Positions 9,569 through 60,795 of a stretch of DNA of 64,000 nucleotides are shown here, piece after piece; the first letter of the stretch is position 1, and each line of letters starts with the position of its first letter. The notes beneath the pieces are model-generated. The model did not search any database, was not told where the DNA came from, and worked only from the letters and a program-made list of their open reading frames with translations. The translations under genes and the position numbers were made by a program. This DNA is from Candidatus Thermosaccharophagus tengchongensis (lineage in GTDB: Bacteria; Armatimonadota; Fervidibacteria; Fervidibacterales; Thermosaccharophagaceae). The stretch lies in the NCBI GenBank assembly GCA_032161105.1, contig JAVHTD010000008.1. One strand, 5' to 3'.

Positions 9569-9597
9569 AGCCGTGAAGTTGGCTATATGAGGGGTGA

Positions 9598-10089
9598 TTG
9601 CTGATGGGGTTGGTGGGTGGTGAATTGGAGCGCAGGTTGGAAGAGATTTTGGGCGCCTTCTGCGGCAAGCGCAGTGAGCTCATCCCGATACTTCAGCGCA
9701 TTCAAAATGAGTTCGGCTACTTGCCCGAAGATGCGCTCGTCAAGGTGTCAAGGTTCATCGGCGTCCCAGAAGCACATGTTTACGGTGTGGCTTCATTCTA
9801 CGAACAGCTTCGTCTCAGGCAGTTGGGAAAGAACATCATCACGATATGCAGGGGCACTTCATGCTATGTGTGCGGCTCATCAAAGCTGATTGACGAGGCT
9901 AAAAGTGTGCTCGGCATTGATGAGGGTGAGACGACGCCGGATTTGAAATGGACGCTTGAGACGGTGACATGCCTCGGGATGTGCGCGCATGCGCCGTGCG
10001 CAATTGTGAATGGGAAGGTATACGGCAAGATGACCCCGAAGAAGCTGGTGAGCATCATTAGGGCGGTGGAAGGTGGGAGGCGATCATGA
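9598..10089 (+). CDS. NuoE/HydC-like [2Fe-2S] subunit
   Basis: LIPILQ.IQ..FGYLP; CRGTSC ... CLGMC cluster ligands. Confidence 0.92.
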   Translation: MLMGLVGGELERRLEEILGAFCGKRSELIPILQRIQNEFGYLPEDALVKVSRFIGVPEAHVYGVASFYEQLRLRQLGKNIITICRGTSCYVCGSSKLIDEAKSVLGIDEGETTPDLKWTLETVTCLGMCAHAPCAIVNGKVYGKMTPKKLVSIIRAVEGGRRS

Positions 10090-11771: not shown

Positions 11772-11841
11772 CGCAGCTTGGCTGGATGAGAGGGTGTATC
11801 TCATCTACATCTGAGTTGAATGGTGAAGGAGGTAGCAGGAT

Positions 11842-27889: not shown

Positions 27890-29260
27890 TCACTCAATGC
27901 TCGCTGAGGACATCTCGTATTTTCCCTGCACACCCTTTATGAACCTCGTTGGGGCTCGCCTGAATATGCTTCCAAAGTGTGAGGAAAGGCGCTGTGCCTC
28001 CTCGGGATGCTCATCAATCAAGTTGTGCGTCTCCTTCGGGTCTTCAACGAGATTGTAAAGTTCATCTGGTTGACCTTGCGGTCTTTGGACGAAACTCCAA
28101 ACTTCGTCTCTTATGCACCGATCAACGCCCTCATGGTAGCCGCATATTACAGCCTTTCGGTGCTCGTCTGTCTCGCCCCTGAGGACTGGCACGAAGCTTT
28201 TTCCGTGCACAGCAATGTTGTTATTTCCGAAGCCGAGCAACTCAAGTATCGTTGGCATTACATCCGGGAACTGGATAAGAGCCTTCGTTCGTCTGCCACC
28301 ATTCTCACCGCCCGGAAGGCGCACGAGGAATGGCACCTTCAGGAGTTCGCTGTGCATCCTATCGGTGCCCTTCAAAAACTTTCCGTGATCGGCAAGCGGA
28401 TGACCGTGATCGGCAGTCAATATGATGAGCGAGTCATCAAAGTAGCCCAAGTCCTTCATTGCTTCAAACAACGGCTTAAGACAATGATCAACGAATGTCA
28501 CCTCGCCAGCATATAACCCTCGTATAAACCTTATCTGCTCCTCACTTGCCCACTCCTTTGCCCAACCACCCATCGGGAGGATAAGCCTTGGTCCTTTGTA
28601 GCTTGGGTCGGTGTAAGTGTCAAAGCGCTTTGGTGGATCCCAAGGTTCGTGTGGCTCAAATGAATCAATCCAAAGGAAGATGTGCCTGTGAACTCTATTC
28701 CGCTTAAGCCAATCTATGGCTCTGTCAACAACCTTCGCCACAAACCAATCGCTCTCGTCCCTAAAATCATCGGTGTTAGCCAAGAACTGTGCCACCCTCG
28801 CACGCCACTCTGGAGTGTAGTTTTCGTTGACATAGTCATCCACACTTCTTCTCGGCGGTGACGAAAACCAAGGGTCATACTCCTGCCCGCGGATCCATTC
28901 GTATGAATTGAAGCCGCGATGGTAATTCATGTTCGGCGCACGAAAATGGTATGTGTCGCTAATGAGACCGCACACATACCCCTCCTTGCGGAGTATCTCA
29001 GCGAGGGTAATGTCATAAGGTGTCAGAGGCATCCAGCCACGAAATGGCAGTGAGAAGTGCCCCGTCATGAGTTCGTATCGCACAGGCATTGTTGGCAAGC
29101 CACTTGGATATGCATTTTCAAAGATGATGCACTCGCTTGCGAACTCATCAATGTTGGGCGTCTTGCAAGCAGGCACATCGTCAAAGATTGGTTGTCCACG
29201 GTTGTAGATGCTAACATGATCTTGGCGCAGACTGTCAAGCATGATGAAGATCAAGTTCAT
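27890..29260 (-). CDS. sulfatase-like hydrolase (alkaline phosphatase superfamily)
   Basis: IMLDSLRQD, PTMPVR..LMTG, PHEPWDPP, TADHG, DELYNL..DP.E. RBS GGAGGTGG. Confidence 0.88.
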   Translation of the reverse strand: MNLIFIMLDSLRQDHVSIYNRGQPIFDDVPACKTPNIDEFASECIIFENAYPSGLPTMPVRYELMTGHFSLPFRGWMPLTPYDITLAEILRKEGYVCGLISDTYHFRAPNMNYHRGFNSYEWIRGQEYDPWFSSPPRRSVDDYVNENYTPEWRARVAQFLANTDDFRDESDWFVAKVVDRAIDWLKRNRVHRHIFLWIDSFEPHEPWDPPKRFDTYTDPSYKGPRLILPMGGWAKEWASEEQIRFIRGLYAGEVTFVDHCLKPLFEAMKDLGYFDDSLIILTADHGHPLADHGKFLKGTDRMHSELLKVPFLVRLPGGENGGRRTKALIQFPDVMPTILELLGFGNNNIAVHGKSFVPVLRGETDEHRKAVICGYHEGVDRCIRDEVWSFVQRPQGQPDELYNLVEDPKETHNLIDEHPEEAQRLSSHFGSIFRRAPTRFIKGVQGKYEMSSASIE

Positions 29261-32200
29261 CCTCACCACCTCCGGACTTTTTTATACGCCGACGGACGGC
29301 ATCTTCTTCACTCATTTGCGCCATTGCTTCATCCCTCAACTTGAGCACGGCAGCTTGGATATCGGCAGCCAACTTCCTGTAAGCTTCATGACGACTCATC
29401 TTGCCATCATCAATCAACCGCTTGTATGGCTCTGGGTCAATTGGGGCGCCTATGTGAACCGTTATCTTATGCCGTGATGGTATTCGCCTGTGCCTTGAGA
29501 GCGCTTGGAATGTCCCATGTATGAATGCCGGAACTACAGGGGCACCGGATTCAATCGCGAGCAAGCCCACACCCGGCTTGAACTGTTGCATTTCGCCTGT
29601 GGGTGAGCGTGTGCCCTCCGGAAAGACGAGAAGGGTATAGCCACGCTTAAGCGCATCAATCGCAAGTTGTAGACCCTCGGTGAAGCGAACATGCCTGTCA
29701 AATGGGATGACGCTGAGGAATGTGTGAAATAGCCACCCACGAACCTTTGAGTTGAAGAAGTAATCCTTTGCGCCGAGTATGCGCAGCATGCTTGCATGTT
29801 TTCCGCACGCCAGCAGTATTGCGCATGTGTCAAGGTGGCTGCAATGGTTTGCAGCGATGATGAAACCATCACCCTCCGGCAAGTTCTCTGCTCCGTGAAC
29901 TTCAAACCCGAAATAGGTTTTAAAAGCGAGGTGCATTAGCAGCCTCATTAACCACCTGCACATTCGTTTAAAGACACCGGCTTTTAGCCACCTGTTTGTC
30001 TCCGCAGTTGGCAGCCTTTTGGATTGCAGGACCTTTAAATGCTTTGCATCCATTTCGGCATGGGCATCCTTTGCGCTGGTGATTCGTCTCGCCACAGCAT
30101 CAATCACATCTTGCACGGTGTGCAGTGCCGGAAGAAGAGCCTCAGGGAATGTCGTCTTCAACCTCACTTCAAGTTCAACAAGCAGCTCAAGCCGCATGAG
30201 CGAATCAAGTCCGAGGTCAAATTCAAGATGATGCGTTGGTGAGATCTTGTCGCTCGGTTTATTTGCGACCAGCGCTATGGCATCTATGACGAGCCCCTTC
30301 AATCGCCCATCAACTTCACGGACGCGCGTTGTGGGCAGCTCCAATGGCTTTGATGTCCCTATGAGCAACCCCTTGACAGCAGCCCTGTCAATTCCCAAAG
30401 CGGGCGTCCTCGGCAGCTCGCATGTCAGTATGTGGACTCGTTGAATTCGCTGGTAGGATGGGAGGCGTGAGGAGATTTCCCGTATAGCTGCATGAAGGCG
30501 CTTTGTGAAAAGCTCCAAGCCCTCCTTATCGTTCCATAGGTTCTCATCCGGCACAATGACAGCGTGAATTGCCTCACCCATCGTCTCCTCATCCCATACC
30601 CCGACGACGCACATCTCTTTGACCTCTGGGAGGTTGCCGTATAGGGCTTCAATCTCTTCAGGGTAGACATTTTTCCCCGCCGCAGTGACTATCACATCTT
30701 TCATCCTTCCGCAGATGTATAGGTAGCCGTGTGGATCAATGTAGCCAAGGTCGCCCGTGTGGAGCCACCCATCTTTTATGACCTGCGATGTCGCCGCTTC
30801 GTCATTGAAGTAGCCGAGCATGACATTGCTCCCTTTGACGAGTATCTCACCGATGCCCCTCTCATCTGGCTGTGCGATCCTCACTTGCACTCCCGGCAGT
30901 GGCAATCCCACTGAGCCCCTCTTTTGGCGTTCAATGGGATTCACAGTTACCACTGGTGACGCCTCTGTAAGTCCATACCCCTCGCAGACAACGAAGCCAA
31001 GCGCTGTCAAATCATCAAACACGCTGATCGGGAGTGGAGCACCGCCGCTTATGAGAGCTCTGACCTTGCCGCCAAAGGCTTCGTGCACAAATGGAAAAAG
31101 CACCCTACCAATCCTCAGGTTAGTTGCTCTGTAGAGCAGCTTGCTGATCTTAAGCATTGCTCTGAAGAGCGCCCATTTGAACTTCCCACTCCTTCTAACC
31201 TCGGAGAAGATGGCGTCACGCAATATCTGCAAAGCCCTTGGGACTGCTATTATGCAAGTGGCGCCGACTTGGCGCATCGTTTCAATTACCGCTTTTGAGC
31301 GCTGCGTCGTCAGGTAGGTTATCGTGGCGCATGAATACAAAGGCACAAGAAAGCCGCCGGTGAACTCAAGTGCGTGATTGAGCGGAAGTATTGAAACGAA
31401 GTGGTCATTCTCGTTTGGCTTTAGCATGCGAGATATCGCCAGGACATTTGAGATCAAGTTGTGGTGCGAAAGCATAACTCCCTTAGGTTCGCTCCCGGCT
31501 CCCGAGATCACAATGATTGATGCGATGTCGCTTGGGGCGATCTCCCTCTCATACTCTTCAGTATCAATTGGCTCCGGATGGATCTGGTCTTGTTCTCCAT
31601 ACGGCAGGCACATGTTGTTTATGTCAAGCACTATCGGCGTCGGCTGCATCCTCTCCATCGCGCATTCCCAGATTGCCTTTGCGCATGTAGTTGAAGCCAA
31701 TATTGCAACAGCCCCAGACCACTTTGCGACCCTCAAAACATACTCTGGCGGGAGTTGCCTATCAACATGCACAACCGCAGCTCCAAGGCTTGACGCAGCC
31801 ATGTAAGAGATGCCCCATTCTGGCTGATTCTCGGAGTAGAGCAGAACTTTTGAGCCGTGACCAACACCGTTCTTGAGCAATGAAGCCGCCATAGTTCGGC
31901 GTAAGCGCTCAATATCGCTGTAAGTGTATCTGACCCAAATTCCATCCCGCTTTATTTGCATGGCGACCTTTTCTGGGGAAAGCGATGCAGCCCGTGCAAC
32001 TAAATCGGGCAGTATGCGCGGCTCCACTTTGTGGCGCTCCTTGATGTGCTGCTCCCCGACTGGCTCTTCAAACCTTTTGATGAGCATCGCTCGTGCCTTT
32101 GAGCCGTCCACTCCCAGTGCATACCGCAGCAAACCGGGTATGTGTATTCGCTGTATGTATTCAACCCAGTTGATTGAACGCACATCAAAGTTGAAAGTCC

Positions 32201-33701
32201 GCTTGTCATCATCCTGCAGGCGCTCAAACAGGTTGAGTAGGTTCGTCGTTTCGTAGCATGCTTTGACCTCCGTATATGAGCCGTAAAGTTCAACATAGTA
32301 TCTCAGGCGCTCAAGCATGAGGCGCATATTTCGCAGCTGTGAGTTTAGTTTCCTCATGCGGGCTGTGAACTGGAGCCGTTCCGTAAGCGGAAGCAAAATG
32401 CCGAGGAGAAACCACCGCATGCGCAGCTCTCTCAGGAATTCATCGCTTCGCTTGAATGTCCACTCTGGATATTGTGGGACTGCTGAAATGTCGTGCAGCC
32501 TCAGTGGGTTGCTCAGGAAGTATTCCCTGCCGATGCGATACAGCTCACCGAACTTTAGCGGGTTGACCGACCCAGTCGCAACATGAATGATGTGCAACCC
32601 CGGCTCCAACGCAGCCAGCATTACGGAGCAAAGCAGGGCGTTAACCACGAAGTCAACCGGGACAAAGTCAATGATGGCATTCGGATCGCCCGGGAAGTCC
32701 GGCAGCCTCCCACGCCCGTAGCCGATGATTATCGGGTCTGCCATCCTCAACCCTTCTATCCACCCGGGCGATGGCTCCAAGAGACCGCTCTCAATGATGG
32801 CTGGGCGAAGTATGATGGTGGGCACATCATCCCTGTAGCGTGTGATTAACTGCTCTCCCATCGCTTTGGTGAATGTATATGTATCGTTCCAACCGCGCCT
32901 CCTCGCCCACATCATACCTTCGCTGACGAGCATCTCCCTTAGCCGTTCACTCTGTGCCAGCTCAACTTGCCCTTCATCGCCAGCTTGATTGCGCTCTTGC
33001 CCTGCATGTGCATACAGTTCCTCAACTCGCTTCAGTATTGCCTGAACTTCATCATCAACATCATACCTCTCTATGGAGCCATCGGTTGGGCTTTTTCCGA
33101 GGCGCAGGTGCCACATTGATACATTGGGCATGAGCGGCTCCTCTTTGACCAAGCCCTCTCGCATCGCATTCACATAGCATGTGGAGACATGCACGAAGAT
33201 CGGTTTTTTCGCCCATGTCTTTACGAACTCAATGACACGCCTTGGAGCTATGGCGTTGAGCTTCGTTGCGACATCAATTGGGGCATCAAAAGAGACATCG
33301 GCAGCGCAATTTATGACTATGTCAACTTCATCTCGCACAGCCTCAAGCGCTTCCTCGCCCAGACCCAGCTGCTCGTTGAGCAAGTCGCCCTCAATTGGGA
33401 CGATCTTTTCGTCAACGAGCCCCTCAAGCTCCTCACCGAGCTCACGCCTCAACGGTTCAAAAGCCGTTGAGAGTAGAACCTCCTCATACAATCTCCTTCT
33501 GGCATCCATCACTTGACCATTTGGAAGTCTCCTTTTGCGCACAAGGACATAAGCGCGCCGTATGCAGCTTAAGTCCTTGAGCAACTTGGCTATGAGTGCC
33601 TTCCCGAGGAAGCCAGTGCCACCTGTGATGAACAAGGTCTTACCTCGGTAGAACTCACTCACCTTTGGCAACTTGTCCCTTCTTCCCACCTTGCCCACCA
33701 A
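29235..33701 (-). CDS. multidomain fatty acyl-CoA reductase / AMP-binding / ACP / PlsC-type acyltransferase (ElbD-like)
   Basis: TGGTGFLG and YTFTK (FAR); GYGLTE, LHTGDLG, GRMKDVI (adenylation); LGLDSL (ACP Ser); NHCSHLD and FPEGTRS (acyltransferase). Confidence 0.9.
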   Translation of the reverse strand: MVGKVGRRDKLPKVSEFYRGKTLFITGGTGFLGKALIAKLLKDLSCIRRAYVLVRKRRLPNGQVMDARRRLYEEVLLSTAFEPLRRELGEELEGLVDEKIVPIEGDLLNEQLGLGEEALEAVRDEVDIVINCAADVSFDAPIDVATKLNAIAPRRVIEFVKTWAKKPIFVHVSTCYVNAMREGLVKEEPLMPNVSMWHLRLGKSPTDGSIERYDVDDEVQAILKRVEELYAHAGQERNQAGDEGQVELAQSERLREMLVSEGMMWARRRGWNDTYTFTKAMGEQLITRYRDDVPTIILRPAIIESGLLEPSPGWIEGLRMADPIIIGYGRGRLPDFPGDPNAIIDFVPVDFVVNALLCSVMLAALEPGLHIIHVATGSVNPLKFGELYRIGREYFLSNPLRLHDISAVPQYPEWTFKRSDEFLRELRMRWFLLGILLPLTERLQFTARMRKLNSQLRNMRLMLERLRYYVELYGSYTEVKACYETTNLLNLFERLQDDDKRTFNFDVRSINWVEYIQRIHIPGLLRYALGVDGSKARAMLIKRFEEPVGEQHIKERHKVEPRILPDLVARAASLSPEKVAMQIKRDGIWVRYTYSDIERLRRTMAASLLKNGVGHGSKVLLYSENQPEWGISYMAASSLGAAVVHVDRQLPPEYVLRVAKWSGAVAILASTTCAKAIWECAMERMQPTPIVLDINNMCLPYGEQDQIHPEPIDTEEYEREIAPSDIASIIVISGAGSEPKGVMLSHHNLISNVLAISRMLKPNENDHFVSILPLNHALEFTGGFLVPLYSCATITYLTTQRSKAVIETMRQVGATCIIAVPRALQILRDAIFSEVRRSGKFKWALFRAMLKISKLLYRATNLRIGRVLFPFVHEAFGGKVRALISGGAPLPISVFDDLTALGFVVCEGYGLTEASPVVTVNPIERQKRGSVGLPLPGVQVRIAQPDERGIGEILVKGSNVMLGYFNDEAATSQVIKDGWLHTGDLGYIDPHGYLYICGRMKDVIVTAAGKNVYPEEIEALYGNLPEVKEMCVVGVWDEETMGEAIHAVIVPDENLWNDKEGLELFTKRLHAAIREISSRLPSYQRIQRVHILTCELPRTPALGIDRAAVKGLLIGTSKPLELPTTRVREVDGRLKGLVIDAIALVANKPSDKISPTHHLEFDLGLDSLMRLELLVELEVRLKTTFPEALLPALHTVQDVIDAVARRITSAKDAHAEMDAKHLKVLQSKRLPTAETNRWLKAGVFKRMCRWLMRLLMHLAFKTYFGFEVHGAENLPEGDGFIIAANHCSHLDTCAILLACGKHASMLRILGAKDYFFNSKVRGWLFHTFLSVIPFDRHVRFTEGLQLAIDALKRGYTLLVFPEGTRSPTGEMQQFKPGVGLLAIESGAPVVPAFIHGTFQALSRHRRIPSRHKITVHIGAPIDPEPYKRLIDDGKMSRHEAYRKLAADIQAAVLKLRDEAMAQMSEEDAVRRRIKKSGGGEDELDLHHA

Positions 33702-36132: not shown

Positions 36133-38343
<2,211 letters not shown>

Positions 38344-38384: not shown

Positions 38385-39647
38385 CTACCTTGGCTTGATG
38401 CTCTCTTTGACCCTCCTCTCGGCTTCAATCAGCATCTCAACGGCATCGCCTTCGCCATTTAATGATTCAACGATGGCATAATGCCAATCAATCTTTGGCG
38501 TCTCTTGCGTCCTGCCATCAAATGTGGCGGTGATTTTACCCTTCAGCCTCTCCATAGCTTTTGCTGCGCCCTTAGCACTTGTGTGTGGCATAGCTATTGC
38601 AAACTCGTTCACCTTCATCCTACCAACATAGTCAACCTCTCGCAAGGTTGAGCGAATGACTTCGGCAAGCTTTGATATGATTGAGTTGAAGTGCCTTGCG
38701 CGCCATCTCCTATGGTAGAGGCGAAGTGCTGGAGATATGATGTATGCCAGCGAAACCGAGAAGCTGTATCTCTGTGCCCTGCGCAAGTCCTCATTCAGGC
38801 GCTCAATGAAATACTGCTCCCCGAAGAAACCCGTCACCTCATCCCTTTCCATAGCCCTTCTCACCCTCATTGGCGCTTTACCGGTCAACAGCCCGCGCAG
38901 GTTGTGTAAGCCCCTTTGGAGCAGGTATGTGACATAGTTTGCCGAGATGCCGAGTATGCGAGCTATCTCCGTCTTCGTAAGCTCGTTGTAAAAGAACAAC
39001 TCAATGACTTTCCTCTGAAGCCTGCTCAGGTGCTGCAAAGCCTGTTGGATAGCCAGCCTGTCTTCAAGGCGTTGCATATCTTCCCAAAGACCCTCAAGCG
39101 CCCTCCTGTCAAGTTGTGAGTCAACCCCCTCTTCACCCTCCTCGCTGATCATCACTTCATCAAGCGATTCAACTTGAAATAGACTGCTTGAGCCGAGTAT
39201 GCGTTTCACCAACTCCAAACTCATCCCCGAGTATTCGGCTACCTCTTCCGGATCAGGTTCTCGGTGCAACTTTTGGCGCAGCTCTTCAATTGCCCTGTTG
39301 AGCCTGTATCTTTCCTCCTGCATCCATGCCGGCTCTTTGATCAATCCGCCGAGGTCACGAAGGTAATGCTTGAGGTGACCGTTTATGACATGTGTCGCAT
39401 ATGTGTTGAACTGCGTTCCCATGGAGGGGTCATATCGTTCAACGGCGTTTATCAACCCGATGCATGCTTCCTGAAACAGGTCGTCAAATGGTTCGTTGGA
39501 TATAGCTGCATAGCGCCGAGCAATGCGCCTTGCAAGCTCAATGTTGGCACTGATGAGTTCGTCCCTAAGCTTCGGGTCTCTCGTGCGCCTGTAGAGCCTG
39601 AATTTCTCTTTCTCAGCCTCGCGGTTGATCTTATCATCTTGCCTCAA
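38385..39647 (-). CDS. SigB/SigF/SigG-type sigma-70 factor with C-terminal degenerate GGDEF-like domain
   Basis: DLFQEA.IGLINAVERYDP..G.QF.TYA, LKHYLRD, region 3 REP..EEVA, region 4 LTKTEIARILGIS; then RDEVTG..RAQRY..REVD...RMKVNEF. Confidence 0.88.
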   Translation of the reverse strand: MRQDDKINREAEKEKFRLYRRTRDPKLRDELISANIELARRIARRYAAISNEPFDDLFQEACIGLINAVERYDPSMGTQFNTYATHVINGHLKHYLRDLGGLIKEPAWMQEERYRLNRAIEELRQKLHREPDPEEVAEYSGMSLELVKRILGSSSLFQVESLDEVMISEEGEEGVDSQLDRRALEGLWEDMQRLEDRLAIQQALQHLSRLQRKVIELFFYNELTKTEIARILGISANYVTYLLQRGLHNLRGLLTGKAPMRVRRAMERDEVTGFFGEQYFIERLNEDLRRAQRYSFSVSLAYIISPALRLYHRRWRARHFNSIISKLAEVIRSTLREVDYVGRMKVNEFAIAMPHTSAKGAAKAMERLKGKITATFDGRTQETPKIDWHYAIVESLNGEGDAVEMLIEAERRVKESIKPR

Positions 39648-39888
39648 GATGATGCGTTACACCTCTCGCCGAATTGGCTCATTACAACTACCGTCTTTTG
39701 ATCCCTCATTCCCAATCAGCAATTTAGCAGCGATGCGCGATTGGTGTTAACACTTATATGGCTTTACGACGCATCCACCAGCTGGCATCGCCAACTCAAA
39801 CATCGTGAGCTTGGGGTGAAGCTAACCCTCAATGCTTCAGCTCATGCATAATGCTTAGTTATGCGGCTGCAACTACCGTGCAAAAGGG

Positions 39889-40749
39889 GTGATTAAGATG
39901 TTGATGTTTCGGAATCTGAATCCGGGAGCCATCAGCATACACGCCGACCTTGAGAGGACGCTCAAGATTGCGCGTGATGCTGGGTTTGATGGGGTTGACC
40001 TCATGTTGAGTGAGGCTGAGAGGCTCTCAAAGGAGCATTCCATCAGCTTTGTCGTCTCACTCTATGAGCGCTTTGGGATGAGAGTTGGAGGGTGTGGGCT
40101 TCCATTCAACTGGCTAAGCGAGGATGATTATGAGCGCGGGTTAAGCGAGCTGCCGAGATGGGCAAAGCTCGCAAGAGATGTTGGATGCACAAGGTTCATC
40201 ACATGGGTGCCATCGTTCTCCGATGAGCGTCCATACGACGAGAACTTTAGATGGCATGTTGAACGCTTCAAGCCGATTGCTAATATTCTGGGTGAGCACG
40301 GTTGTCGGCTTGGACTTGAATTCCTCGGCACAAAGAGTCTGCGCATCGGGCACAAGTATGAGTTCATCCACACGCTTGACCAGATGATTGAGCTGTGTGA
40401 TGCCATTGGCACAGGCAATGTCGGATTGCTCCTTGATTCATGGCATTGGTGGACGAGCGATGGAACAGTTGAGGACATCAGGAAGTTAAGCTGCGATCAG
40501 GTTGTGTATGTTCATGTCAATGATGCTCCCGCTGGCATACCGAAGGATGAGCAGATTGACAATGTGAGGTGCCTTCCGGGCGAGACGGGTGTCATTGACC
40601 TCGTTGGCTTTCTTGGGGCGCTCAGGGATATAGGCTACGATGGACCTGTAACGCCAGAGCCATTCAGCAAAGCATTGAGCGAGCTGCCCGATGAGGAAGC
40701 CGCGCTTGTGACGGCAAGGGCGCTCAATAGGGTCTGGGAAATGATTTGA
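39889..40749 (+). CDS. sugar phosphate isomerase/epimerase (TIM barrel)
   Basis: LGLEF, LLDSWHW, VHVND, R.LPGE.G.IDL, GYDGPVTPEPF. Confidence 0.88.
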   Translation: MIKMLMFRNLNPGAISIHADLERTLKIARDAGFDGVDLMLSEAERLSKEHSISFVVSLYERFGMRVGGCGLPFNWLSEDDYERGLSELPRWAKLARDVGCTRFITWVPSFSDERPYDENFRWHVERFKPIANILGEHGCRLGLEFLGTKSLRIGHKYEFIHTLDQMIELCDAIGTGNVGLLLDSWHWWTSDGTVEDIRKLSCDQVVYVHVNDAPAGIPKDEQIDNVRCLPGETGVIDLVGFLGALRDIGYDGPVTPEPFSKALSELPDEEAALVTARALNRVWEMI

Positions 40750-43062: not shown

Positions 43063-43485
43063 ATGACGGCGCCAAGCGCAAGGAAGATACTCGTAGTCGA
43101 TGACGAGAAGCACATAGTCAGGCTTGTGCAGGTAAATTTGGAGAAGCGCGGCTACCAAGTCATAACGGCATACGATGGATTGGAATGCCTTGAGAAGGTG
43201 AAGCAGGAGAAACCAGACCTCATAATTCTTGATGTGATGATGCCGCGCCTTGATGGCTTTGAAACTTTAAAGCGCCTCAAGGCAGATCCAACAACGAGGG
43301 ATATACCGGTTGTGATGCTCACGGCGAGGGCTCAGGATAAGGATGTCTTGACGGGCTATGTCCTCGGAACGGACCTCTACCTCACAAAGCCGTTCAGCCC
43401 GATTGAGCTTTTGACCATGGTTGAGCGCATCTTCCAGAGCCGCGAGGAGGAAGAGGAAGGCATTTACGACCTTGACCGGATGTAG
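43063..43485 (+). CDS. single-domain response regulator
   Basis: ILVVDDE, IILDVMMP (phospho-Asp), MLTA, YLTKPF. Confidence 0.93.
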   Translation: MTAPSARKILVVDDEKHIVRLVQVNLEKRGYQVITAYDGLECLEKVKQEKPDLIILDVMMPRLDGFETLKRLKADPTTRDIPVVMLTARAQDKDVLTGYVLGTDLYLTKPFSPIELLTMVERIFQSREEEEEGIYDLDRM

Positions 43486-50138: not shown

Positions 50139-51689
50139 ATGGCTCTCAAAGCTTTGATGGGGAGCTTAAACCTCGCACCAAGTAGTGTCCGCAAAGACAG
50201 AATGCAATGTGGCATTAGCTTGATTGAGGTGTTGGTGGTCATCGCATTGCTCATCATCGGACTCTGGCTGATGATGAATGTTTTTCCGGTTGGTCAGCGT
50301 GCGCTTAGGGTGTTGAGGGAGCGCAACCTCGCAAGGACAATTGCGGAGCGCATCGCTTATGAGCTCGCAAACTCGGCAAAGTTTGAGGGTGGCTTATTGC
50401 CCGACAATCCGGCGCTATATGAGTATCCATTAGCCGACCTTCGACGGCTTGATTTGCCAGTTGACAGGACTGGCGATGGGATTCCAGACGAGCCACCAGA
50501 TGGTAAAAGAACAATTGAAGATTTGCTTGAACTGCGAAGGCGCTTGAGGTGGGTTGTGGGGGAGAGTTTAACGAGCGCCCCTGCCATAACTGCCTTGGCA
50601 CCCATAAACTCCGTCATCGAAACCCATAGATATCAGCCATACACTGAAGCCAGTAGCCTCACCGAAGTAACTCCAGGCAAATACTTTGTGGATTATTCAA
50701 GAACTCCGCCGGAGATTGTGGTGATGTTCGCCCCGAATCAAACGAAGCGATACCGGATATCTTACATTGCCCAAGTCGGGGGGCAAAAATTCATTGCAAA
50801 TGAGGAACTCATTGAAGCAGCGGCAGATGCAAGCGGCATTGCAAGAATAACGCCACGGCTTTTGGTAAACGCCCAGGGACAAATCATTTTAGTCATTAGT
50901 GTCAAAGAAATTGAACTTATTACAAATCCATTGACTTTAACTGACGAGCAAAAGCGAGCGGGAGTTATCCCGCCCAGCATTCCACCTCCTGAATATATCT
51001 CCTACGAGTTGGGTTCGGATGGCGCTTGGATGATGTGTTGGGGAAGGACTGAGGGATCAACTGGAGGTGTGATATTTGACCCGATTCCGAAGCCTCTAAT
51101 TTCAAAGCTGCAGTCGGAGAGCAGCACCACAGCTGGTATTGCAGCTTTTGGTTCATCTTTACTTACAGTTCCTGATACGGAATTTGAAATTAATCAAACT
51201 GGAATGGTGCTTTTTAGCAACCTCAATCCTGATACCCTCATTCGTCTATCCTACAAATCCGCGAGATCTCCAAATCAGCTCATTGACAACTGGTTCTTTG
51301 TGCCATTTGTCCCGCCATTATCATTTACTCCTTCACCAGCTATTGTTGGTGGAACGCCTGTTGAGGTTTGGCGTGAATATTTTTTGGACCTAAGTGATAG
51401 AGAAAAAATCTTTGTTGCAGGGATGTGGAGTGGATTGCTGCTTAATGTTACATATGTTGACGCAGGTGGGAACAGGAGGTCAATTCTTCGGCGTGTTGAG
51501 TATGACCCGCAAAGGGTAAGCTGGAAAGGCGTGATTTATCTTCCAACACCGTATGTGCATGTTGAGAAGGTGGAAGGCGCTTCAATCAAAGTTTGGGTTA
51601 GCGGTAGATTCTTCTTGGGAGTGGTTGGTGGGAAGCGACCATTAAATTTGGGGAGCGTGATTGAAAAAGAGGCCCTCATTGTGAGGTGA
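50139..51689 (+). CDS. prepilin-type N-terminal cleavage/methylation domain protein (PilV-like, large)
   Basis: G|ISLIEVLVVIALLIIG with Glu at +5; RBS GGAGGG. Confidence 0.82.
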   Translation: MALKALMGSLNLAPSSVRKDRMQCGISLIEVLVVIALLIIGLWLMMNVFPVGQRALRVLRERNLARTIAERIAYELANSAKFEGGLLPDNPALYEYPLADLRRLDLPVDRTGDGIPDEPPDGKRTIEDLLELRRRLRWVVGESLTSAPAITALAPINSVIETHRYQPYTEASSLTEVTPGKYFVDYSRTPPEIVVMFAPNQTKRYRISYIAQVGGQKFIANEELIEAAADASGIARITPRLLVNAQGQIILVISVKEIELITNPLTLTDEQKRAGVIPPSIPPPEYISYELGSDGAWMMCWGRTEGSTGGVIFDPIPKPLISKLQSESSTTAGIAAFGSSLLTVPDTEFEINQTGMVLFSNLNPDTLIRLSYKSARSPNQLIDNWFFVPFVPPLSFTPSPAIVGGTPVEVWREYFLDLSDREKIFVAGMWSGLLLNVTYVDAGGNRRSILRRVEYDPQRVSWKGVIYLPTPYVHVEKVEGASIKVWVSGRFFLGVVGGKRPLNLGSVIEKEALIVR

Positions 51690-51696
51690 TACTGAG

Positions 51697-52530
51697 ATGA
51701 AATGGGCGAGAGGGGAAAATGCCCTAACACTGACAGAGTTGCTCATAGTGTTGGGACTTATAGCCATTGCTGCCGCCATAATTTTGCCGACGATCCCTGG
51801 GGTTAGCACAAGGGGATTGGGAATCCAATGTCAGTTGAATTTGCAGGCAATTTACCAGGCTGTTAAGCTCTATCATCTTGACTATCAGGGCTATCCGCCA
51901 TTTGATTTCGCAAATTGCTCACCATCAAATCCACCAGTCGGCAGAGGGCTGTTAAGCCTTTACAGCTTTGTGCAACCGGATTCAACAGCGCCGCTTGGCT
52001 ACAGGCGAATTAGAACTGGCTACTTAAATTCGCCATCATATTTGCATTGTCCTTTGGATAAAACTCAAAAGTTCGGAGTTGATGATGACAACGATGGCAA
52101 GATAGATGAAGAGTTGTTCAATTTTGTTGACATTGATGGTGATGGAAAGGATGATCTTCCTGTTGACGATGATGGCGATGGGCAGTTTTATGACGATTTG
52201 AAACGCGCAGAATATTGCTCATATCAAGTTCCTGAGGATTTGGATTCTGTGAAGGAAGTTGGCGATAGTTTCACATACCTACGCACTCGCACCGCCAACA
52301 AAGATGATCCAGATGCCATGCGCCAGTTGAGTAGAATTTGCATTGATGGCGATAAAATCCCATATTTTGCTGATGATACGACGGTCATTACATGGTGCAA
52401 ACATCACCGTCGCACTTTAAAGCGCGGCAATGAACCAGCTGATTTGGTTCTTTTCCTTGATGGGCACATAAAAATTATGGAGGCGCCAAGCCAAACCAAT
52501 AATGTTGTGGGATGGCGAAGGAAGCCATGA
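51697..52530 (+). CDS. pilin/pseudopilin-like protein with acidic DxDxDG insert
   Basis: A|LTLTELLIVLGLIAI, C..NL.AIY.A..LY..DY..YPP, C-terminal WC.HH...LFLDGHIK. Confidence 0.82.
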   Translation: MKWARGENALTLTELLIVLGLIAIAAAIILPTIPGVSTRGLGIQCQLNLQAIYQAVKLYHLDYQGYPPFDFANCSPSNPPVGRGLLSLYSFVQPDSTAPLGYRRIRTGYLNSPSYLHCPLDKTQKFGVDDDNDGKIDEELFNFVDIDGDGKDDLPVDDDGDGQFYDDLKRAEYCSYQVPEDLDSVKEVGDSFTYLRTRTANKDDPDAMRQLSRICIDGDKIPYFADDTTVITWCKHHRRTLKRGNEPADLVLFLDGHIKIMEAPSQTNNVVGWRRKP

Positions 52531-53660
52531 TGCCAAAAAGGAGAATACACGGAAGATTTTTGCAAATTGGAGGGATCAAATTGCGTGGGATAGGAGGAAA
52601 GAGCGGAAGAATTTGCCATATAGTTGCGGGCAATTCTGCCGATAAAGTTGGCATGACTCTGGTTGAAATCCTTGTAGCACTCGCTCTGCTCAGCATAGTT
52701 TTCGGGCTTGTTATATTGCCATTTACCAAATCTTTTGACCTTCTTCGCCGTGCGAGAATTGCTGGCTCACTTGAGTCGGCGATTATGTTGGCTATGCGGC
52801 AAATTGAGGCAGATCTTTCAAGGGCAAGGATTGTGTTTTTGATGAAAAGCCCATATGACCTTCAGGATGGCGAAATAGGTGATGACGATTCCTTCGGTAG
52901 AATTGACATTGTTATAAGTGATTCAGAGAGTGCCCTTAAGTTTGGCACCCCACTTGTTCCGCAGGGGAAAATTGTCACATATTATGGGAGATTTCTCGAC
53001 CCGACCAAGCGATACAGTATGGACCCCAAATCCACCAATCCAAGGGTCCTTTACCGAGTTGAGCACATACCAAATGACTTCGATGGAGATGGCAGATATT
53101 CAGAGGATCCGATTGAGGGGATTGATAATGATGGAGATGGAAGAATTAATGAGGATCCGATTGATGGGATTGATAATGATGGAGACAGAAAAATTGATGA
53201 GGATCCGATTGAGGGGATTGATAGTGATGGAGATGGAAGAATTGATGAGGATCCGATTGATGGGATTGATAATGATGGAGACAGAAAAATTGATGAAGAT
53301 CCGATTGGGGGGATTGATAATGATAAAGATAAAAGAATTGATGAGGATCCATTTAATGCCCCAGAAAATGCAATAACGCCGCTTGATGGAACGGATTTGG
53401 CAGGGCTGAGATTTTGGTATTTGGGAGTTGATAATGACGGAGATGGGAAGGTTGATGAGGATCCGATTGATGGGATTGATAATGATAGGGATGGAGAAGT
53501 TGATGAGGATCCGGATGAGGCATCAAAAATGATAATTGTTGACATCAAACTGCAGAAAGTAGATCCGACAGTTCGTGTGCGAGGGGAGAGAAAATTGCTG
53601 CTAATTCGCAGGCAAATTCGGATACGCTTAGATCCATGGGTGGAGGTATTTTATCAGTAG
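52512..53660 (+). CDS. prepilin-type (PilW-like) protein with acidic tandem repeats
   Basis: G|MTLVEILVALALL and eight DxDxD..DEDP units. Start uncertain. Confidence 0.82.
   Translation: MAKEAMMPKRRIHGRFLQIGGIKLRGIGGKSGRICHIVAGNSADKVGMTLVEILVALALLSIVFGLVILPFTKSFDLLRRARIAGSLESAIMLAMRQIEADLSRARIVFLMKSPYDLQDGEIGDDDSFGRIDIVISDSESALKFGTPLVPQGKIVTYYGRFLDPTKRYSMDPKSTNPRVLYRVEHIPNDFDGDGRYSEDPIEGIDNDGDGRINEDPIDGIDNDGDRKIDEDPIEGIDSDGDGRIDEDPIDGIDNDGDRKIDEDPIGGIDNDKDKRIDEDPFNAPENAITPLDGTDLAGLRFWYLGVDNDGDGKVDEDPIDGIDNDRDGEVDEDPDEASKMIIVDIKLQKVDPTVRVRGERKLLLIRRQIRIRLDPWVEVFYQ
53076..53351 (+). repeat. 48-nt (16-aa) tandem repeat, about 6 units, consensus DNDGDG(R/K)IDEDPIDGI
   Basis: gaggatccgattga(g/t)gggattgataatgatggaga... 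repeated with an alternating 96-nt super-period. Confidence 0.95.
53429..53520 (+). repeat. two further copies of the 16-aa acidic repeat
   Basis: DNDGDGKVDEDPIDGIDNDRDGEVDEDPDE. Confidence 0.9.
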
Positions 53661-53679
53661 CATTGCGAGGTGATTAATA

Positions 53680-56316
53680 ATGCTTTGCAAACTTAACTAC
53701 ATGAATGTAAAAGGTCAAGCTGCTATACTTGCTGTCATGTTAATTACCGGTGTTGCCCTCGTCAGTGCCGGGTTTGCAGCATTTGTTGCCAATTCAATCC
53801 ACCACGCAAGAGCATTGACTGGGAAGATATCTGGGAAAGACATTGCAATGTATGGCATTGAATATGCAATGCAGCAACTTTTAACAAGTCCCGAGGGGGC
53901 TGATTGGCGACCAGTCCAAGATCCAAATCTGCCATGGGATGCATATGAGCAAAGGCGTGGCTGGAATACACAATATGTAAAGTATATGGCTCCAAATGGC
54001 TATTTTTTGCTTAAAGTAAGCAATCGCCCCGACGACTATATTAAGGACGACTATATTAAGCGCTATATTGAAGCTGGCTATATTGTAATTGATTCAATTG
54101 GAAGACCGGAGCCAAAATCACCAGTTTACTACCGCATAATTGCCATTGTCCCTCAGCCGATGATCCAGTATGCGCGTTTCCTCGGGGGCAGGAGAAGTGA
54201 TAATGATAAAGATGGAAAAATTGATGAGGATCCCATTGATGGGATTGATAATGATAAAGATGAAAGAATTGATGAGGATCCCATTGATGAACATGTTATT
54301 GGTATAGGTCAAATTGATTTTGATGGGGATGGGGTAGTCAATCAATTGGAGGAAAATTCCAGTATAGTGACGATAAATGGTGGGATCTTCTCAAACGGCG
54401 ACCTCAGGATCGCTTCTCAATCACTTATGAAATTGCTTTTTGACAGTGCTAACCCAAATCACGGGCTATTTGTAGCAGGCGAGTCTACAGTTAGCCAAGC
54501 CAGGGTTGAACTCTGTGATAAAAATGGTAATCCAATTTCTTCAAGTTCACCCCGGGATTCCAGTGACCAAAATTTTGAAATTTTCCCGTTAAATGGCATC
54601 CCAAGGTATAGAGATGGCTATTACTCTAACAAGCCTTCGCTTGGTAGGATTGATATTGATGTTTATAGGCGCTTACAACCGATTTTGCCGCCAACAATTG
54701 ACGCCGAAAGGTATCGCAGGCTTATCTCACATGATAGCAGTGGAACACAGGTCATTTATATTGACAATACACAAGTCATTTATGTTGACAATAAGGGTGA
54801 TATTCAGGACAATATTGCTGGAGCACCTTCGGGGCTTAAGCCGGCACAGGTTCAATTTTGGGATTGGGTCAATGTGCCACCAGAACCAGAAACGGATCCG
54901 AGAACGAGAAGAAGTGACCCGAAAAGCGGATGGTATTATAACCCAAATGGGGATCCATATCGCAGAAACCCTCCGATTAATAACACTTTGCCGGATTATT
55001 TCCGATATGTTCCGCCGGGATGCGAGGTTGAGCTTCAAGGTGCAGGCATAGTAATAACGCGACATGATAAACCTAATGATGTGTCGCCAATTTCTTATTA
55101 CCCAGTAAATTCGGAAAAACCAGTGGTCATTTTTGCTGAGGGGAATGTGAGGATAAAGGGCAAAATAGATGCATCGCTAACTGTCATTTCAATGGGCACA
55201 ATTTACATTGAAGGTTCGTTGGAAACAGCGGATCCAGAGCGGCAGCATATTGCCCTTCTCGCAAAACATAATGTTTGCCTGAATACAACGGCATTGTTGC
55301 CGATTATAGAAAGGACCACTGGCACGATAGAGATTAAATCCGATGACCCAGAATATTGGGATCATGACAAAATACCGCTACATTATGAGTTTCCGGACTC
55401 TTCGCCCTCCTCGTTAACTTGGCGGATACCGCATTTTAACGAACAGGGACAAAAAATAAGGATAACGCTGCTTCATAGTGGGCTTGGCGACCCAAAGGAG
55501 GGTAATATCTCCATCGAGATCACCTTGAATGACTCCCAGGGCAATCCTTTGTATTGTGCCCCACCTGGTGAACCTTTACATTATGACCCAGACAATGATG
55601 GAAAAATCGGCGAAGACCCAATTGACAATATTGACAATGATGGAGACGGAATGACCGATGAGGATTCGGGGCAACCGATGCCTTGCTACAAGAGTGGTTC
55701 TTCACATGGCATATATTGGATTGAATATGAATTCAAAGAAGGCGAGTCAGTCTATTCCGTAACTGTTAAGGTATTAAATGCCAACGAAATTACATATCGT
55801 CTCTCTCGCTTCAAAGTTGAGTTGGTTGACGCAAGTGGCAATCCGATACTATGGAAGATAAGGATAAATGCGGCAATTTATGCAGAGTCCGGCTGCTTCT
55901 TCATCTTGCCGCCACCATACTTTGACAACATGTTGAACTTGGCAAAGGGTGACGGTGCCGCTCGATTCCGAAGGTTCAATTACTTTGACATTGAGATAAA
56001 CGGTTCAATAGCCGAGTATACGACCGCCGTGACAATGGCGAAGTCAATCGGTTTGAGTGACGAGGAAGCTGTGGATAAATACCGCAAAGTGCTTGATAAG
56101 TTAGCATATCCAACCAATAAAGTGAATGACGATCGCGATGATGAAGTTGACGAGGACCCACTTGATGGAGTCGATAACGATGGCGATGATAAAGTTGACG
56201 AGGACCCACCCGGTTGGGGGTCGGTGCGTTTCAGATACGACCCGTGGTTACTTCAATATCCACCGCCATTCTTGCCAGTCTCTCCGAGACCGATAATCAT
56301 TTATTCTGGCTTATAG
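53680..56316 (+). CDS. large PilX/GspK-like protein with three paired acidic repeat inserts
   Basis: KG|QAAILAVMLITGVALV (no Glu5, as in PilX/GspK), A..GIEYA, VIFAEGNVRIKG, LTVIS.GTIYIEG. Repeat pairs near 54199, 55585 and 56125. Confidence 0.78.
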   Translation: MLCKLNYMNVKGQAAILAVMLITGVALVSAGFAAFVANSIHHARALTGKISGKDIAMYGIEYAMQQLLTSPEGADWRPVQDPNLPWDAYEQRRGWNTQYVKYMAPNGYFLLKVSNRPDDYIKDDYIKRYIEAGYIVIDSIGRPEPKSPVYYRIIAIVPQPMIQYARFLGGRRSDNDKDGKIDEDPIDGIDNDKDERIDEDPIDEHVIGIGQIDFDGDGVVNQLEENSSIVTINGGIFSNGDLRIASQSLMKLLFDSANPNHGLFVAGESTVSQARVELCDKNGNPISSSSPRDSSDQNFEIFPLNGIPRYRDGYYSNKPSLGRIDIDVYRRLQPILPPTIDAERYRRLISHDSSGTQVIYIDNTQVIYVDNKGDIQDNIAGAPSGLKPAQVQFWDWVNVPPEPETDPRTRRSDPKSGWYYNPNGDPYRRNPPINNTLPDYFRYVPPGCEVELQGAGIVITRHDKPNDVSPISYYPVNSEKPVVIFAEGNVRIKGKIDASLTVISMGTIYIEGSLETADPERQHIALLAKHNVCLNTTALLPIIERTTGTIEIKSDDPEYWDHDKIPLHYEFPDSSPSSLTWRIPHFNEQGQKIRITLLHSGLGDPKEGNISIEITLNDSQGNPLYCAPPGEPLHYDPDNDGKIGEDPIDNIDNDGDGMTDEDSGQPMPCYKSGSSHGIYWIEYEFKEGESVYSVTVKVLNANEITYRLSRFKVELVDASGNPILWKIRINAAIYAESGCFFILPPPYFDNMLNLAKGDGAARFRRFNYFDIEINGSIAEYTTAVTMAKSIGLSDEEAVDKYRKVLDKLAYPTNKVNDDRDDEVDEDPLDGVDNDGDDKVDEDPPGWGSVRFRYDPWLLQYPPPFLPVSPRPIIIYSGL

Positions 56317-58207: not shown

Positions 58208-58990
58208 TTACGGGCGCAAGGTCTTGCGCAACTCCTTAAGCATTTCATCGGGTATGGTTGTGATGCCCTCCCTCGTGATCGTCTTCGCCAAAGGTAACGC
58301 TCTATCAACTCCGCCAGTTGCAGGGTCTATTCCTGAGGCGATGTCGAGGAGCAACATGGTTTCCTGCAATGCCTCTTCAAGTTCCATCTCATGGAATGGG
58401 TGTCTCCTTCGGACAATGTAATCAAGTGCACCACGAATGCGCTCTGCGCCGGAGCCAACAGCACCATACTCTCGGCTTTCAAACCTTGCCCCCAATGCAT
58501 CATAGAAGAAGATGCGCCCTTCATCCCTCTTTAAATCGTATGTGCTCACGATCGGGAGGAAACCACCTATGCCTTGCATCAACTCTGGAATGGTTCTCAT
58601 TAGCACCCTTGAAACTTCGTTAAGCTTCCCTTCCAAGCTGAGTTCCTGAAGCTGACTCCTTGCGTAGTATTTGAACGAGTGTCTGAGTAAGCGGACTGCT
58701 TCAACTGCCCTTGCGTAAGAGCCGGCAATCGCAATGAGTGTGTAATCATCAAGCTCCATTATCTTCTCGGCTTCCTCGTAAAGGATTGTGTTGCTTGCCA
58801 TCGCCCTCCTATCCGCTATGTTCAGGACGCCATCCTTAAACTTGACTGCAATGACCGTAGTGCCGTGAGCGATTGTCGCCCCTGCAACTTGTGCCTCACT
58901 GTGATGATGAGATTGCATAATTGCGGCATGTTGAAACGGCTCATAGCCATGCTCTCTCAGCAACTCCAAGAAGTCGCCGTGCGCATTCAC
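58208..58990 (-). CDS. prcB: 20S proteasome beta subunit
   Basis: Propeptide then HG|TT with Thr1, Asp17 (ADRR) and Lys33 correctly spaced; GSG; D..TGG. Start reassigned to GTG 58990, just after the UBact stop. Confidence 0.9.
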   Translation of the reverse strand: MNAHGDFLELLREHGYEPFQHAAIMQSHHHSEAQVAGATIAHGTTVIAVKFKDGVLNIADRRAMASNTILYEEAEKIMELDDYTLIAIAGSYARAVEAVRLLRHSFKYYARSQLQELSLEGKLNEVSRVLMRTIPELMQGIGGFLPIVSTYDLKRDEGRIFFYDALGARFESREYGAVGSGAERIRGALDYIVRRRHPFHEMELEEALQETMLLLDIASGIDPATGGVDRALPLAKTITREGITTIPDEMLKELRKTLRP

Positions 58991-58997
58991 AAGTTCC

Positions 58998-59174
58998 TCA
59001 CTCCCCGCTGCGCTGTCTGTAGCGGCGAGCCTCACGAGGGTCTATTCGGCGCATGCGCTCAAGCAATTCCTTTGTGTCCGGAGGTTGAACATCCGGCGTC
59101 CTCGGGGCATCCTCATTATCGTGATGCTTCGGCATCAGCTCATTGGGCATTTGGCGGCGCACTTGCTCTGGCAT
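58998..59174 (-). CDS. ubact: ubiquitin-like protein UBact (58 aa; absent from the ORF track)
   Basis: Hand translation: MPEQVRRQMPNELMPKHHDNEDAPRTPDVQPPDTKELLERMRRIDPREARRYRQRSGE. RBS GGAGGTG; C-terminal YRQRSGE; located between dop and prcB. Confidence 0.92.
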   Translation of the reverse strand: MPEQVRRQMPNELMPKHHDNEDAPRTPDVQPPDTKELLERMRRIDPREARRYRQRSGE

Positions 59175-59189
59175 TTGTCACACCTCCTC

Positions 59190-59205
59190 GGTTAAAATTT
59201 TAACC
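59190..59205. promoter_or_regulatory. perfect 16-bp palindrome GGTTAAAATTTTAACC
   Basis: Read directly between the dop stop and the UBact RBS. The palindrome is certain; its function is unknown. Confidence 0.4.
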
Positions 59206-59213
59206 ATCGCAGC

Positions 59214-60743: not shown

Positions 60744-60795
60744 GGTTACCACCAAGCCCCTTATTGAAAGCGCCACGCATAAACTAACGCAAACC

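Follow-up and report, generated by a model that had tools for sequence, protein, structure and literature searches.

The question raised by this locus is whether a sigma factor can read cyclic di-GMP (c-di-GMP) by itself, through a receptor domain carried in its own chain. Known routes from c-di-GMP to transcription run through riboswitches, through repressors, activators and enhancer-binding proteins, and through a single anti-sigma factor, RsiG. In the 64,000-nucleotide stretch of contig JAVHTD010000008.1 of Candidatus Thermosaccharophagus tengchongensis (the window, i.e., the whole stretch of DNA that was analysed), the gene at 38385..39647 on the minus strand encodes a sigma factor followed by a degenerate GGDEF domain, and a first-pass annotation made from the letters alone had put it forward as a one-component, directly c-di-GMP-sensing sigma factor. 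The reading preferred here, to which we assign a rough probability of 0.6, is that this protein, called sigma-GGDEF below, is a group-3 alternative sigma factor (SigB/F/G-, FliA-like) whose GGDEF domain has lost catalysis and is retained as a receptor for c-di-GMP. Direct sensing of c-di-GMP by the sigma factor is a well-supported prediction, not a demonstrated fact.

The gene is a single open reading frame (ORF) of 420 amino acids (aa), with a TTG start and its stop codon at 38385-38387. The start position is common to close orthologs, which open with M-R-Q-D; one database protein (P0002) is 100% identical to the query, and orthologs at 82-87% identity have equal length and start. The sequence GAGAGG about 12 nt 5' of the TTG is the presumed ribosome-binding site. 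When the DNA 5' of the gene was aligned with that of three orthologs, no conserved promoter block emerged. The sigma core is complete, as it had been read before, with regions 2, 3 and 4 all recognised by Pfam, and the presence of region 3 places the protein in group 3 and not among the extracytoplasmic function (ECF) sigma factors. In region 2, residues D56, G64, T82, A84, R97 and D98 are family-invariant in an alignment of 58 full-length sequences. The only curated NCBIfam cut-off that is passed belongs to the generic sigma-70 model (TIGR02937, 97 bits vs 42.9); the best NCBIfam match, to SigB/SigF/SigG (TIGR02980, 163 bits vs 234), the second best, to cyanobacterial SigF (PRK07408, 157 bits vs 261), and the match to FliA/WhiG (TIGR02479, 122 bits vs 190) all stay below theirs. 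A profile search of the PDB had SigF 1l0o_C, WhiG 6pfv_A and SigB 8x6g_H as its top matches. By these comparisons, the sigma part is best classed as a divergent group-3 sigma factor, which resembles SigB/F/G, SigF and FliA/WhiG and, by curated cut-offs, is a member of none of these families.

Adoption of a GGDEF fold by the C-terminal part had been set as a test of the proposal, and structure prediction bore it out. Pfam GGDEF (PF00990) covers residues 268-410 with an E value of 3e-12 and 47 bits, the gathering cut-off being 23.8. The AlphaFold2 (AF2) model of the domain only, built from a 36-sequence alignment, has a mean predicted local distance difference test score (pLDDT) of 94.0 and a predicted template modelling score (pTM) of 0.88, and its top Foldseek matches in the PDB are all GGDEF domains (TMq 0.75-0.82, root-mean-square deviation 2.2-3.4 Å): SiaD 7e6g, WspR 3bre and 3i5c, T. 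maritima 4urs, and PleD 9g85, 2v0n and 1w25. A search of the PDB with the family domain profile gave E values from 2e-31 to 8e-27 for 6d9m, 3ign and PleD.

At the same time, the active site is lost, and here too the first-pass annotation had been right in reading a KVNEF signature and a missing metal-binding Asp. The phmmer alignments place REVD..KVNEF on RExD..GGEEF of 7e6g, RKSD..GGEEF of 6zxm and REVD..GGDEF of 6d9m, with I304 taking the place of the Asp that binds metal in active cyclases. In the same alignments, H312 and R318 occupy the Asn and Asp positions of the cyclases' D-x-D-F-F-K-x-x-N-D ... G-D block, which we take to be the guanine-binding residues, as in PleD. An active diguanylate cyclase carries GG[DE]EF, the metal-binding Asp and the guanine contacts; the window's protein, like others of its clade, has lost its counterparts of all of these and, judged by these positions, the domain cannot be a cyclase. 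The Arg/Trp-rich stretch YHRRWRARHF, which is kept in the window's clade only (P0003-P0008), could be a second nucleotide contact or a nucleic-acid contact.

The I-site motif RxxD is present as R336-E-V-D339, five residues ahead of the degenerate signature (REVD-YVGRM-KVNEF); this spacing had been given correctly, and the range reported with it, 38601-38643, proved one base too long. An alignment of 71 family proteins contains zero insertions between RxxD and the signature position. When the family profile of the C-terminal domain was matched to PleD (1w25_A, E 8e-27), the R..D of the family fell on R-A-I-D, R290, the Arg of "sRAs", on the Arg of K-R-A-T, and R367, the Arg of "aeRl", on that of A-E-R-I, the PleD residue numbers R359/D362, R313 and R390 being counted from the printed chain indices of 1w25_A. 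According to passages of PMC7288161, R359, D362 and R390 of one GGDEF domain of PleD, together with R313 of the adjacent one, make up the I and I' sites, and these sites hold intercalated c-di-GMP dimers that cross-link two GGDEF domains.

The conservation of these positions was counted in three sets: 71 cluster representatives from the first two protein searches (with the exclusion of P0002, of P0061, which is without the sigma part, and of the fragments P0110 and P0135), 80 genome loci, and 114 further proteins from a profile search. RxxD, whose conservation in orthologs the proposal of direct sensing presupposes, was found in 67/71, 79/80 and 113/114 of them, respectively, R367 in 66/71, 77/80 and 114/114, and R290 in 69/71, 74/80 and 113/114, while GG[DE]EF occurred in 0/71, 0/80 and 0/114. 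The sole RxxD miss among the 80 loci is L078, in which the gene is split in two ORFs. In the 58-sequence full-length alignment, with a mean column identity of 31%, there are 9 invariant columns, R336 and D339 among them; in the 36-sequence domain alignment (mean identity 34%, most rows 16-25% identical to the query), the invariant columns are only R336, D339 and P354. The signature pentapeptide, by contrast, takes 68 different forms among the 71 proteins. So, to judge from the alignments, the catalytic signature has drifted freely while the ligand contacts were frozen, and the pocket is what selection kept; the equivalents of all four PleD I/I' residues appear conserved across a family that has diverged to about 30% identity.

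The 80 loci are species-representative and are the best of 215 confirmed relatives among 225 stretches matched in a genome scan. This search used an 11-sequence alignment and two search patterns specific to the sigma-GGDEF family, and the loci therefore say nothing on sigma-GGDEF fusions of other origin. The fusion is present in 80/80 of them, the ORF having been recovered in 71/80 by a greedy ORF picker and in the other 9 by extension of the matched frame, and an identical architecture and motif pattern in 80/80 related loci is far beyond chance. All locus records that bear a taxon belong to Armatimonadota (Fimbriimonadales, Chthonomonadales, Abditibacteriales, Armatimonas, Candidatus Zipacnadia and Candidatus Thermosaccharophagus). 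Additionally, a profile search of a set of 5.8 billion proteins returned 242 proteins at E <=1e-30; among the matches listed, PF00990 and sigma domains occur together in 120/120, and the taxa are Armatimonadota, Fimbriimonadaceae, Chthonomonas and Capsulimonadales. A rapidly computed maximum-likelihood tree of 81 proteins follows taxonomy, as expected of an old, vertically inherited gene. The window's protein, L001 (82% identical to it) and the two Thermosaccharophagus loci form a group in this tree, on a long branch of length 1.75, and one assembly yields two loci (L030 and L063), which points to occasional paralogs. On this evidence, the fusion is taken to be ancient and spread across the Armatimonadota orders sampled.

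Note that the split gene mentioned above (L078:5869-7202, in the complete genome of Armatimonadetes bacterium Uphvl-Ar1) consists of two overlapping ORFs of 352 aa and 92 aa; its neighbour in the tree, L077, from which it is inseparable (branch length 0), has an intact gene, and the split is a frameshift or a sequencing error. There are also longer relatives (P0018, P0096, P0123, P0119 and P0019; 457-590 aa), in which the GGDEF-like domain starts from residue 324-436 and the linker is about 70 to 180 aa longer than that of the query; RxxD is kept in them (e.g., CRSTD, CRDVD).

The gene neighbourhood was analysed both in the window and in the related loci. In the window, gyrB (36190-38343) is convergent with the sigma-GGDEF gene and a xylose-isomerase-like TIM-barrel gene (39889-40749) is divergent from it, and the sigma-GGDEF gene stands alone. 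The absence of an adjacent anti-sigma gene, claimed in the first-pass annotation, can be extended: among 49 ORFs of at least 100 aa chosen in the window, the sigma-GGDEF ORF was scanned separately, and in the 48 others no anti-sigma, STAS or HATPase/kinase-type partner was found by Pfam at E <=1e-5; nor is there a conserved anti-sigma-like neighbour across the 80 loci. Clustering of the neighbours within 4 kb in these loci gave two widespread families only, a T2SSF/PilC protein (Pfam 223 bits) and T2SSE ATPases of the PilB/PilT kind. The commonest position of the sigma-GGDEF gene is directly after pilC, at the end of a pilB/pilT-pilC operon that sometimes begins with pilQ; at L014:3-7326, for example, the order is secretin, PilB (with an MshEN domain), PilT, PilC and sigma-GGDEF. 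The spacing set for this arrangement was kept in 46 of the 49 loci with linked pilC, and the remaining three overlap, apparently only because the ORFs use the longest possible start. The 20 loci without pil genes upstream comprise the Chthonomonadales clade, the window's clade, L019 and L061, and tblastn found no pilB, pilT or pilC in the window. Loci linked to pil genes lie on both sides of the midpoint root, so the linkage with pilC is probably the ancestral arrangement, lost in the lineage of the window. A regular expression for the c-di-GMP-binding motif of MshEN matched 0/19 PilB-like ORFs in the loci; either the expression was imprecise or the motif is not used by these PilB proteins, and no conclusion was drawn from it.

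Canonical cyclase genes, with intact GG[DE]EF and RxxD, Pfam scores of 152-159 bits and, in one of them, HAMP, adjoin the pilC-sigma pair in three Fimbriimonadia loci (L007, L009 and L018), so the phylum has the means to make c-di-GMP. Within the window, a low-G+C stretch (50139-56316, plus strand; 0.43-0.48 vs about 0.52) lies at a distance of 10.5 kb from the sigma gene and includes three consecutive prepilin-like ORFs (50139-51689, 51697-52530 and 52512-53660), whose N-termini read ...GISLIEVLVV..., ...ALTLTELLIV... and ...GMTLVEILVA..., followed by an ORF of 878 aa. The ORFs of this stretch have no Pfam matches, one of them gave weak matches to GspG/PilA N-termini (E 6e-5 and 1e-4), and PADLOC found no defence-system match among them. 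The stretch is possibly a minor-pilin/adhesin cluster and, as such, a candidate target of the sigma factor. The F. ginsengisoli genome paper, in the parts that bear on this subject, describes a non-motile organism and counts 79 PulG-type pseudopilin genes and, as a sigma gene, "one fliA".

The coordinates of all these features are collected in Table 1. Other genes of the window include a stand-alone receiver-domain protein of 140 aa (43063-43485, plus strand), 3.4 kb from the sigma gene; no histidine kinase was found in the window. A Pup-proteasome set (58208-62547, minus strand) is notable outside Actinomycetota; besides a proteasome subunit, it comprises a member of the Pup-ligase family (522 bits) and an AAA ATPase of the proteasomal type that carries OB domains. 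The ORF at 29235-33701 (minus strand) is a 1488-aa fusion of fatty-acyl reductase (NAD_binding_4 + Sterile), AMP-binding ligase, carrier domain and acyltransferase, and may be a single-chain enzyme that makes lipids of the ether or wax type. The genes at 7742-14505 (plus strand) encode a pair of NuoF-like flavoproteins, a 2Fe-2S protein like NuoE, and a molybdopterin oxidoreductase whose N-terminal clusters resemble those of NuoG; together they look like a soluble NAD-linked formate dehydrogenase or a bifurcating complex.

Table 1 Features of the sigma-GGDEF gene and protein in the window, and of the surroundings of its relatives in 80 genome loci
Feature	Position or loci	Strand	Basis or remark
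Whole gene, sigma factor + degenerate GGDEF fusion	38385..39647	-	ORF, Pfam, NCBIfam
Intergenic region 5' of the gene, presumed promoter and ribosome-binding site, joint with divergent TIM-barrel gene	39648..39888	-	Sequence reading
Sigma-70 region 2 (residues 31-99), core binding and -10 recognition	39351..39557	-	Pfam PF04542 Sigma70_r2, 60.7 bits
Sigma-70 region 3 (residues 111-154)	39186..39317	-	Pfam PF04539 Sigma70_r3, 45.5 bits
Sigma-70 region 4 (residues 198-251), -35 recognition helix-turn-helix and beta-flap binding	38895..39056	-	Pfam PF08281 + PF04545 (r4, r4_2)
Linker from region 4 to GGDEF (residues 256-267), GKAPMRVRRAME	38847..38882	-	AlphaFold pLDDT <50 at 258-265
Degenerate GGDEF domain (residues 268-410)	38418..38846	-	Pfam PF00990, AF2, Foldseek, PDB profile search
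R290, equivalent of PleD R313 (reaches into the I-site of the neighbouring domain)	38778..38780	-	Alignment to 1w25_A
I304 at the metal-binding Asp position of active cyclases (lost)	38736..38738	-	phmmer vs 7e6g, 6zxm, 6d9m
Arg/Trp-rich YHRRWRARHF (residues 311-320) in place of the substrate-guanine-binding segment	38688..38717	-	Alignments
I-site RxxD, R336-E-V-D339	38631..38642	-	Translation; aligns with PleD R359/D362
Catalytic signature KVNEF (K345-F349) in GG[DE]EF position	38601..38615	-	Translation, phmmer alignments
R367, equivalent of PleD R390 (third residue of the primary I-site)	38547..38549	-	Alignment to 1w25_A
pilC directly upstream of sigma gene, same strand	49/80 loci		tblastn check
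Divergent pil genes (L071, L074)	2/80 loci		tblastn check
Less than 720 nt of upstream sequence, not judgeable	9/80 loci		tblastn check
pil genes absent upstream	20/80 loci		tblastn check
Canonical cyclase gene	L018:3498-4379	-	Beside pilC-sigma
Canonical cyclase gene	L009:3403-4470	-	Beside pilC-sigma
Canonical cyclase gene	L007:2352-3389	-	Beside pilC-sigma
CBS-GGDEF gene	L075:7182-8765	+	Downstream of sigma gene

Several points weigh against a c-di-GMP receptor in this protein. The three conservation sets overlap and are phylogenetically related, and their counts are not independent events. RxxD and an Arg of the R390 type are also common in active cyclases, as passages of PMC7288161 indicate, so part of the conservation could be inherited. 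The full-length AF2 model (mean pLDDT 83.6, pTM 0.44), in which low confidence falls on the linkers 159-188 and 258-265 (linker pLDDT <50) and Foldseek matches the N-terminal part to sigma factors and the C-terminal part to cyclases, has no confident interdomain packing, and a structural hint for signal transmission is therefore wanting; a complex prediction of residues 1-257 plus 262-420 with two c-di-GMP molecules scored 0.01 and was counted neither for nor against. Neither a cyclase nor a phosphodiesterase was detected by the Pfam scan within the 64-kb window. Finally, in the window's clade, which has a long branch (1.75), the sigma-GGDEF gene is no longer linked to pil genes, so the regulon of this clade may differ from that of the relatives. 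As to the second of these points, the invariance outlived the loss of catalysis, and inheritance by itself is an insufficient explanation of it.

The same observations have to be weighed under other explanations. The dead GGDEF domain could be a nucleotide-independent protein-protein module, serving dimerisation or offering a docking site to a pilus component, to a GGDEF cyclase that is still active, or to an anti-sigma factor encoded elsewhere, and the RxxD residues would then be retained for structural or interface reasons. This is rather unlikely, although it has some appeal: most relatives carry a charge-rich, helix-like segment of 24-30 aa before the domain, like the stalks that dimerise cyclases, the canonical cyclase genes adjoining in 3/80 loci are also compatible with GGDEF-GGDEF heterodimers, and the full-length AF2 model predicts no interdomain packing. 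However, a pure interface would not be expected to fix four ligand-contacting residues amid drift to about 20% identity, whereas the invariant domain columns are the Arg and Asp of RxxD plus one Pro only, and R290 and R367, both nearly invariant, coincide exactly with the other residues by which PleD contacts c-di-GMP.

That the nucleotide bound by the domain is instead (p)ppGpp, a cyclic dinucleotide other than c-di-GMP, or GTP held by what is left of the active site, appears improbable. GTP binding occurs in degenerate GGDEF domains of certain GGDEF-EAL proteins, the PDB entries 9g85 and 9g86, both among the Foldseek matches, are titled PleD with c-di-GMP and ppGpp or pppGpp, and the stretch YHRRWRARHF, new in the window's clade, lies at the former substrate-guanine site. 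On the other hand, the half-site of the active centre is destroyed in the window's protein (I304, H312, R318, KVNEF), and the residues that are conserved belong to the c-di-GMP I-site and not to the GTP site.

A still weak diguanylate cyclase, which would make the protein an enzyme-sigma hybrid, is effectively refuted by the sequence: the Pfam GGDEF score is above its cut-off and E348 and F349 of the signature remain, but GG[DE]EF is found in none of the three sets, the metal Asp is gone from the window's protein, and canonical cyclases of this phylum score 152-159 bits against its 47. An artefact of assembly or gene calling, for which no support was found beyond the reminder from L078 that single records can break, is refuted by a single uninterrupted ORF in the window and in 79/80 independent genome assemblies and by the presence of both domain types in 120/120 of the database proteins listed.

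Returning to sigma-GGDEF as a c-di-GMP receptor, the following course of events can be proposed. c-di-GMP, probably as an intercalated dimer, would bind R336, D339 and R367. The ligand might then bridge, in the manner of PleD, to R290 of a second copy and lead to c-di-GMP-dependent dimerisation of the sigma factor, a PleD-like bridging of two GGDEF domains being suggested by the retention of R290; alternatively, its second face might be held by arginines on the surface of the protein's own sigma domains. Because the GGDEF domain begins only 12 aa past the last helix of region 4 (the linker is 12-13 aa long in the window's clade vs 24-30 aa in most of the family), its immobilisation should change how well region 4 can reach the beta-flap and the -35 element. 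Such a change would switch the activity of the sigma factor, and inhibition at high c-di-GMP is the favoured sign, by analogy with RsiG-(c-di-GMP)-WhiG. How the signal is transmitted and with which sign are both guesses, and the sign is the weakest step. The regulon likely consists of type IV pilus, pilin and surface-behaviour genes.

A published description of a sigma-GGDEF fusion was not found in full-text searches, which did not extend to subscription-only papers or supplements. The first-pass annotation likewise knew of no such fusion as characterised. A sigma factor and an I-site receptor in one chain are not mentioned in the term-matched passages of a 2025 review of c-di-GMP effectors (PMC12564702), nor in those of PMC9239204 or of a 2026 preprint on WhiG diversification. 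Public annotation names the proteins merely "sigma-70 family" or "sigma-B factor"; among the matches listed, the names are only "sigma-70 family RNA polymerase sigma factor" and "RNA polymerase sigma-B factor". Taken jointly, the evidence may describe the first sigma factor with its own second-messenger receptor, in which c-di-GMP would be read by the I-site of a fossil cyclase and passed directly to promoter selection by RNA polymerase, in an ancient, Armatimonadota-wide system that governs, as a master switch, the type IV pilus and the set of pilins in these largely non-flagellated bacteria; we would give even odds to this whole chain. If it is true, a receptor fused in cis is the shortest possible route from a messenger to promoter choice, and an evolutionary path is revealed on which the feedback site of a cyclase outlasts the enzyme and turns into a sensor. 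Moreover, the presence of the gene throughout the Armatimonadota orders sampled and its usual position in a pilus operon provide a testable entry to the regulation of surface behaviour in a poorly studied phylum, and the compact module of about 160 aa could be used as a c-di-GMP-responsive part for synthetic control of transcription.

Among known systems, Synechocystis SigF is required for pilin expression and motility. Cyanobacterial group-3 SigF is also the second-best NCBIfam match of the sigma part (PRK07408, below its cut-off, as given above), and the SigF of Synechococcus has been linked to biofilm genes, as the title of one paper states. In contrast to sigma-GGDEF, SigF is without a C-terminal sensor domain. 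C-terminal regulatory extensions are known in ECF sigma factors of the ECF41 and ECF42 types, which resemble the present case in that a domain attached to the C-terminus of the sigma factor controls it in cis and takes the place of an anti-sigma protein; however, these are group-4 proteins without region 3, and their extensions are SnoaL-like or tetratricopeptide repeat (TPR)-like. These extensions are not known to have a second-messenger ligand.

With the I-site of PleD and WspR, the domain shares the fold (TMq 0.77-0.81 to 3bre, 9g85, 2v0n and 1w25) and four residues at aligned positions (RxxD and the equivalents of R390 and R313). There, the site serves product inhibition of an active enzyme, whereas here the signature is KVNEF and the metal Asp is missing, and the attached module is a sigma factor instead of a receiver domain. 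PelD, PopA and SgmT are degenerate-GGDEF receptors of c-di-GMP, with polysaccharide synthesis, protein localisation or degradation, and a histidine kinase as their outputs. They are likened to sigma-GGDEF by description only: an inactive GGDEF domain that keeps RxxD serves as the ligand-binding module, but none of them is known to be joined to a sigma factor. A passage of PMC7288161 includes structures of PelD in its list of I-site receptors.

The outcome finds its nearest counterpart in RsiG-WhiG, through which, according to passages of PMC8325347, c-di-GMP controls a group-3 sigma factor with a Rubrobacter regulon of type IV pilus and diguanylate cyclase/phosphodiesterase genes; here, the sigma gene lies in a pil operon in 49/80 loci and has an adjacent cyclase gene in three. 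However, RsiG is a separate anti-sigma coiled-coil protein that binds c-di-GMP via E(X)3S(X)2R(X)3Q(X)3D motifs, whereas in sigma-GGDEF the ligand would be bound by a GGDEF domain of the same polypeptide. The RsiG motif has zero matches in the six frames of the 64-kb window, the whole extent of that search, and an unlinked partner is possible; since neither an RsiG-type motif nor such a partner is present in the window, sigma-GGDEF does not seem to be a member of the RsiG system. By analogy with these systems, sigma-GGDEF probably works like a degenerate-GGDEF I-site receptor, with an outcome like that of the RsiG-WhiG switch.

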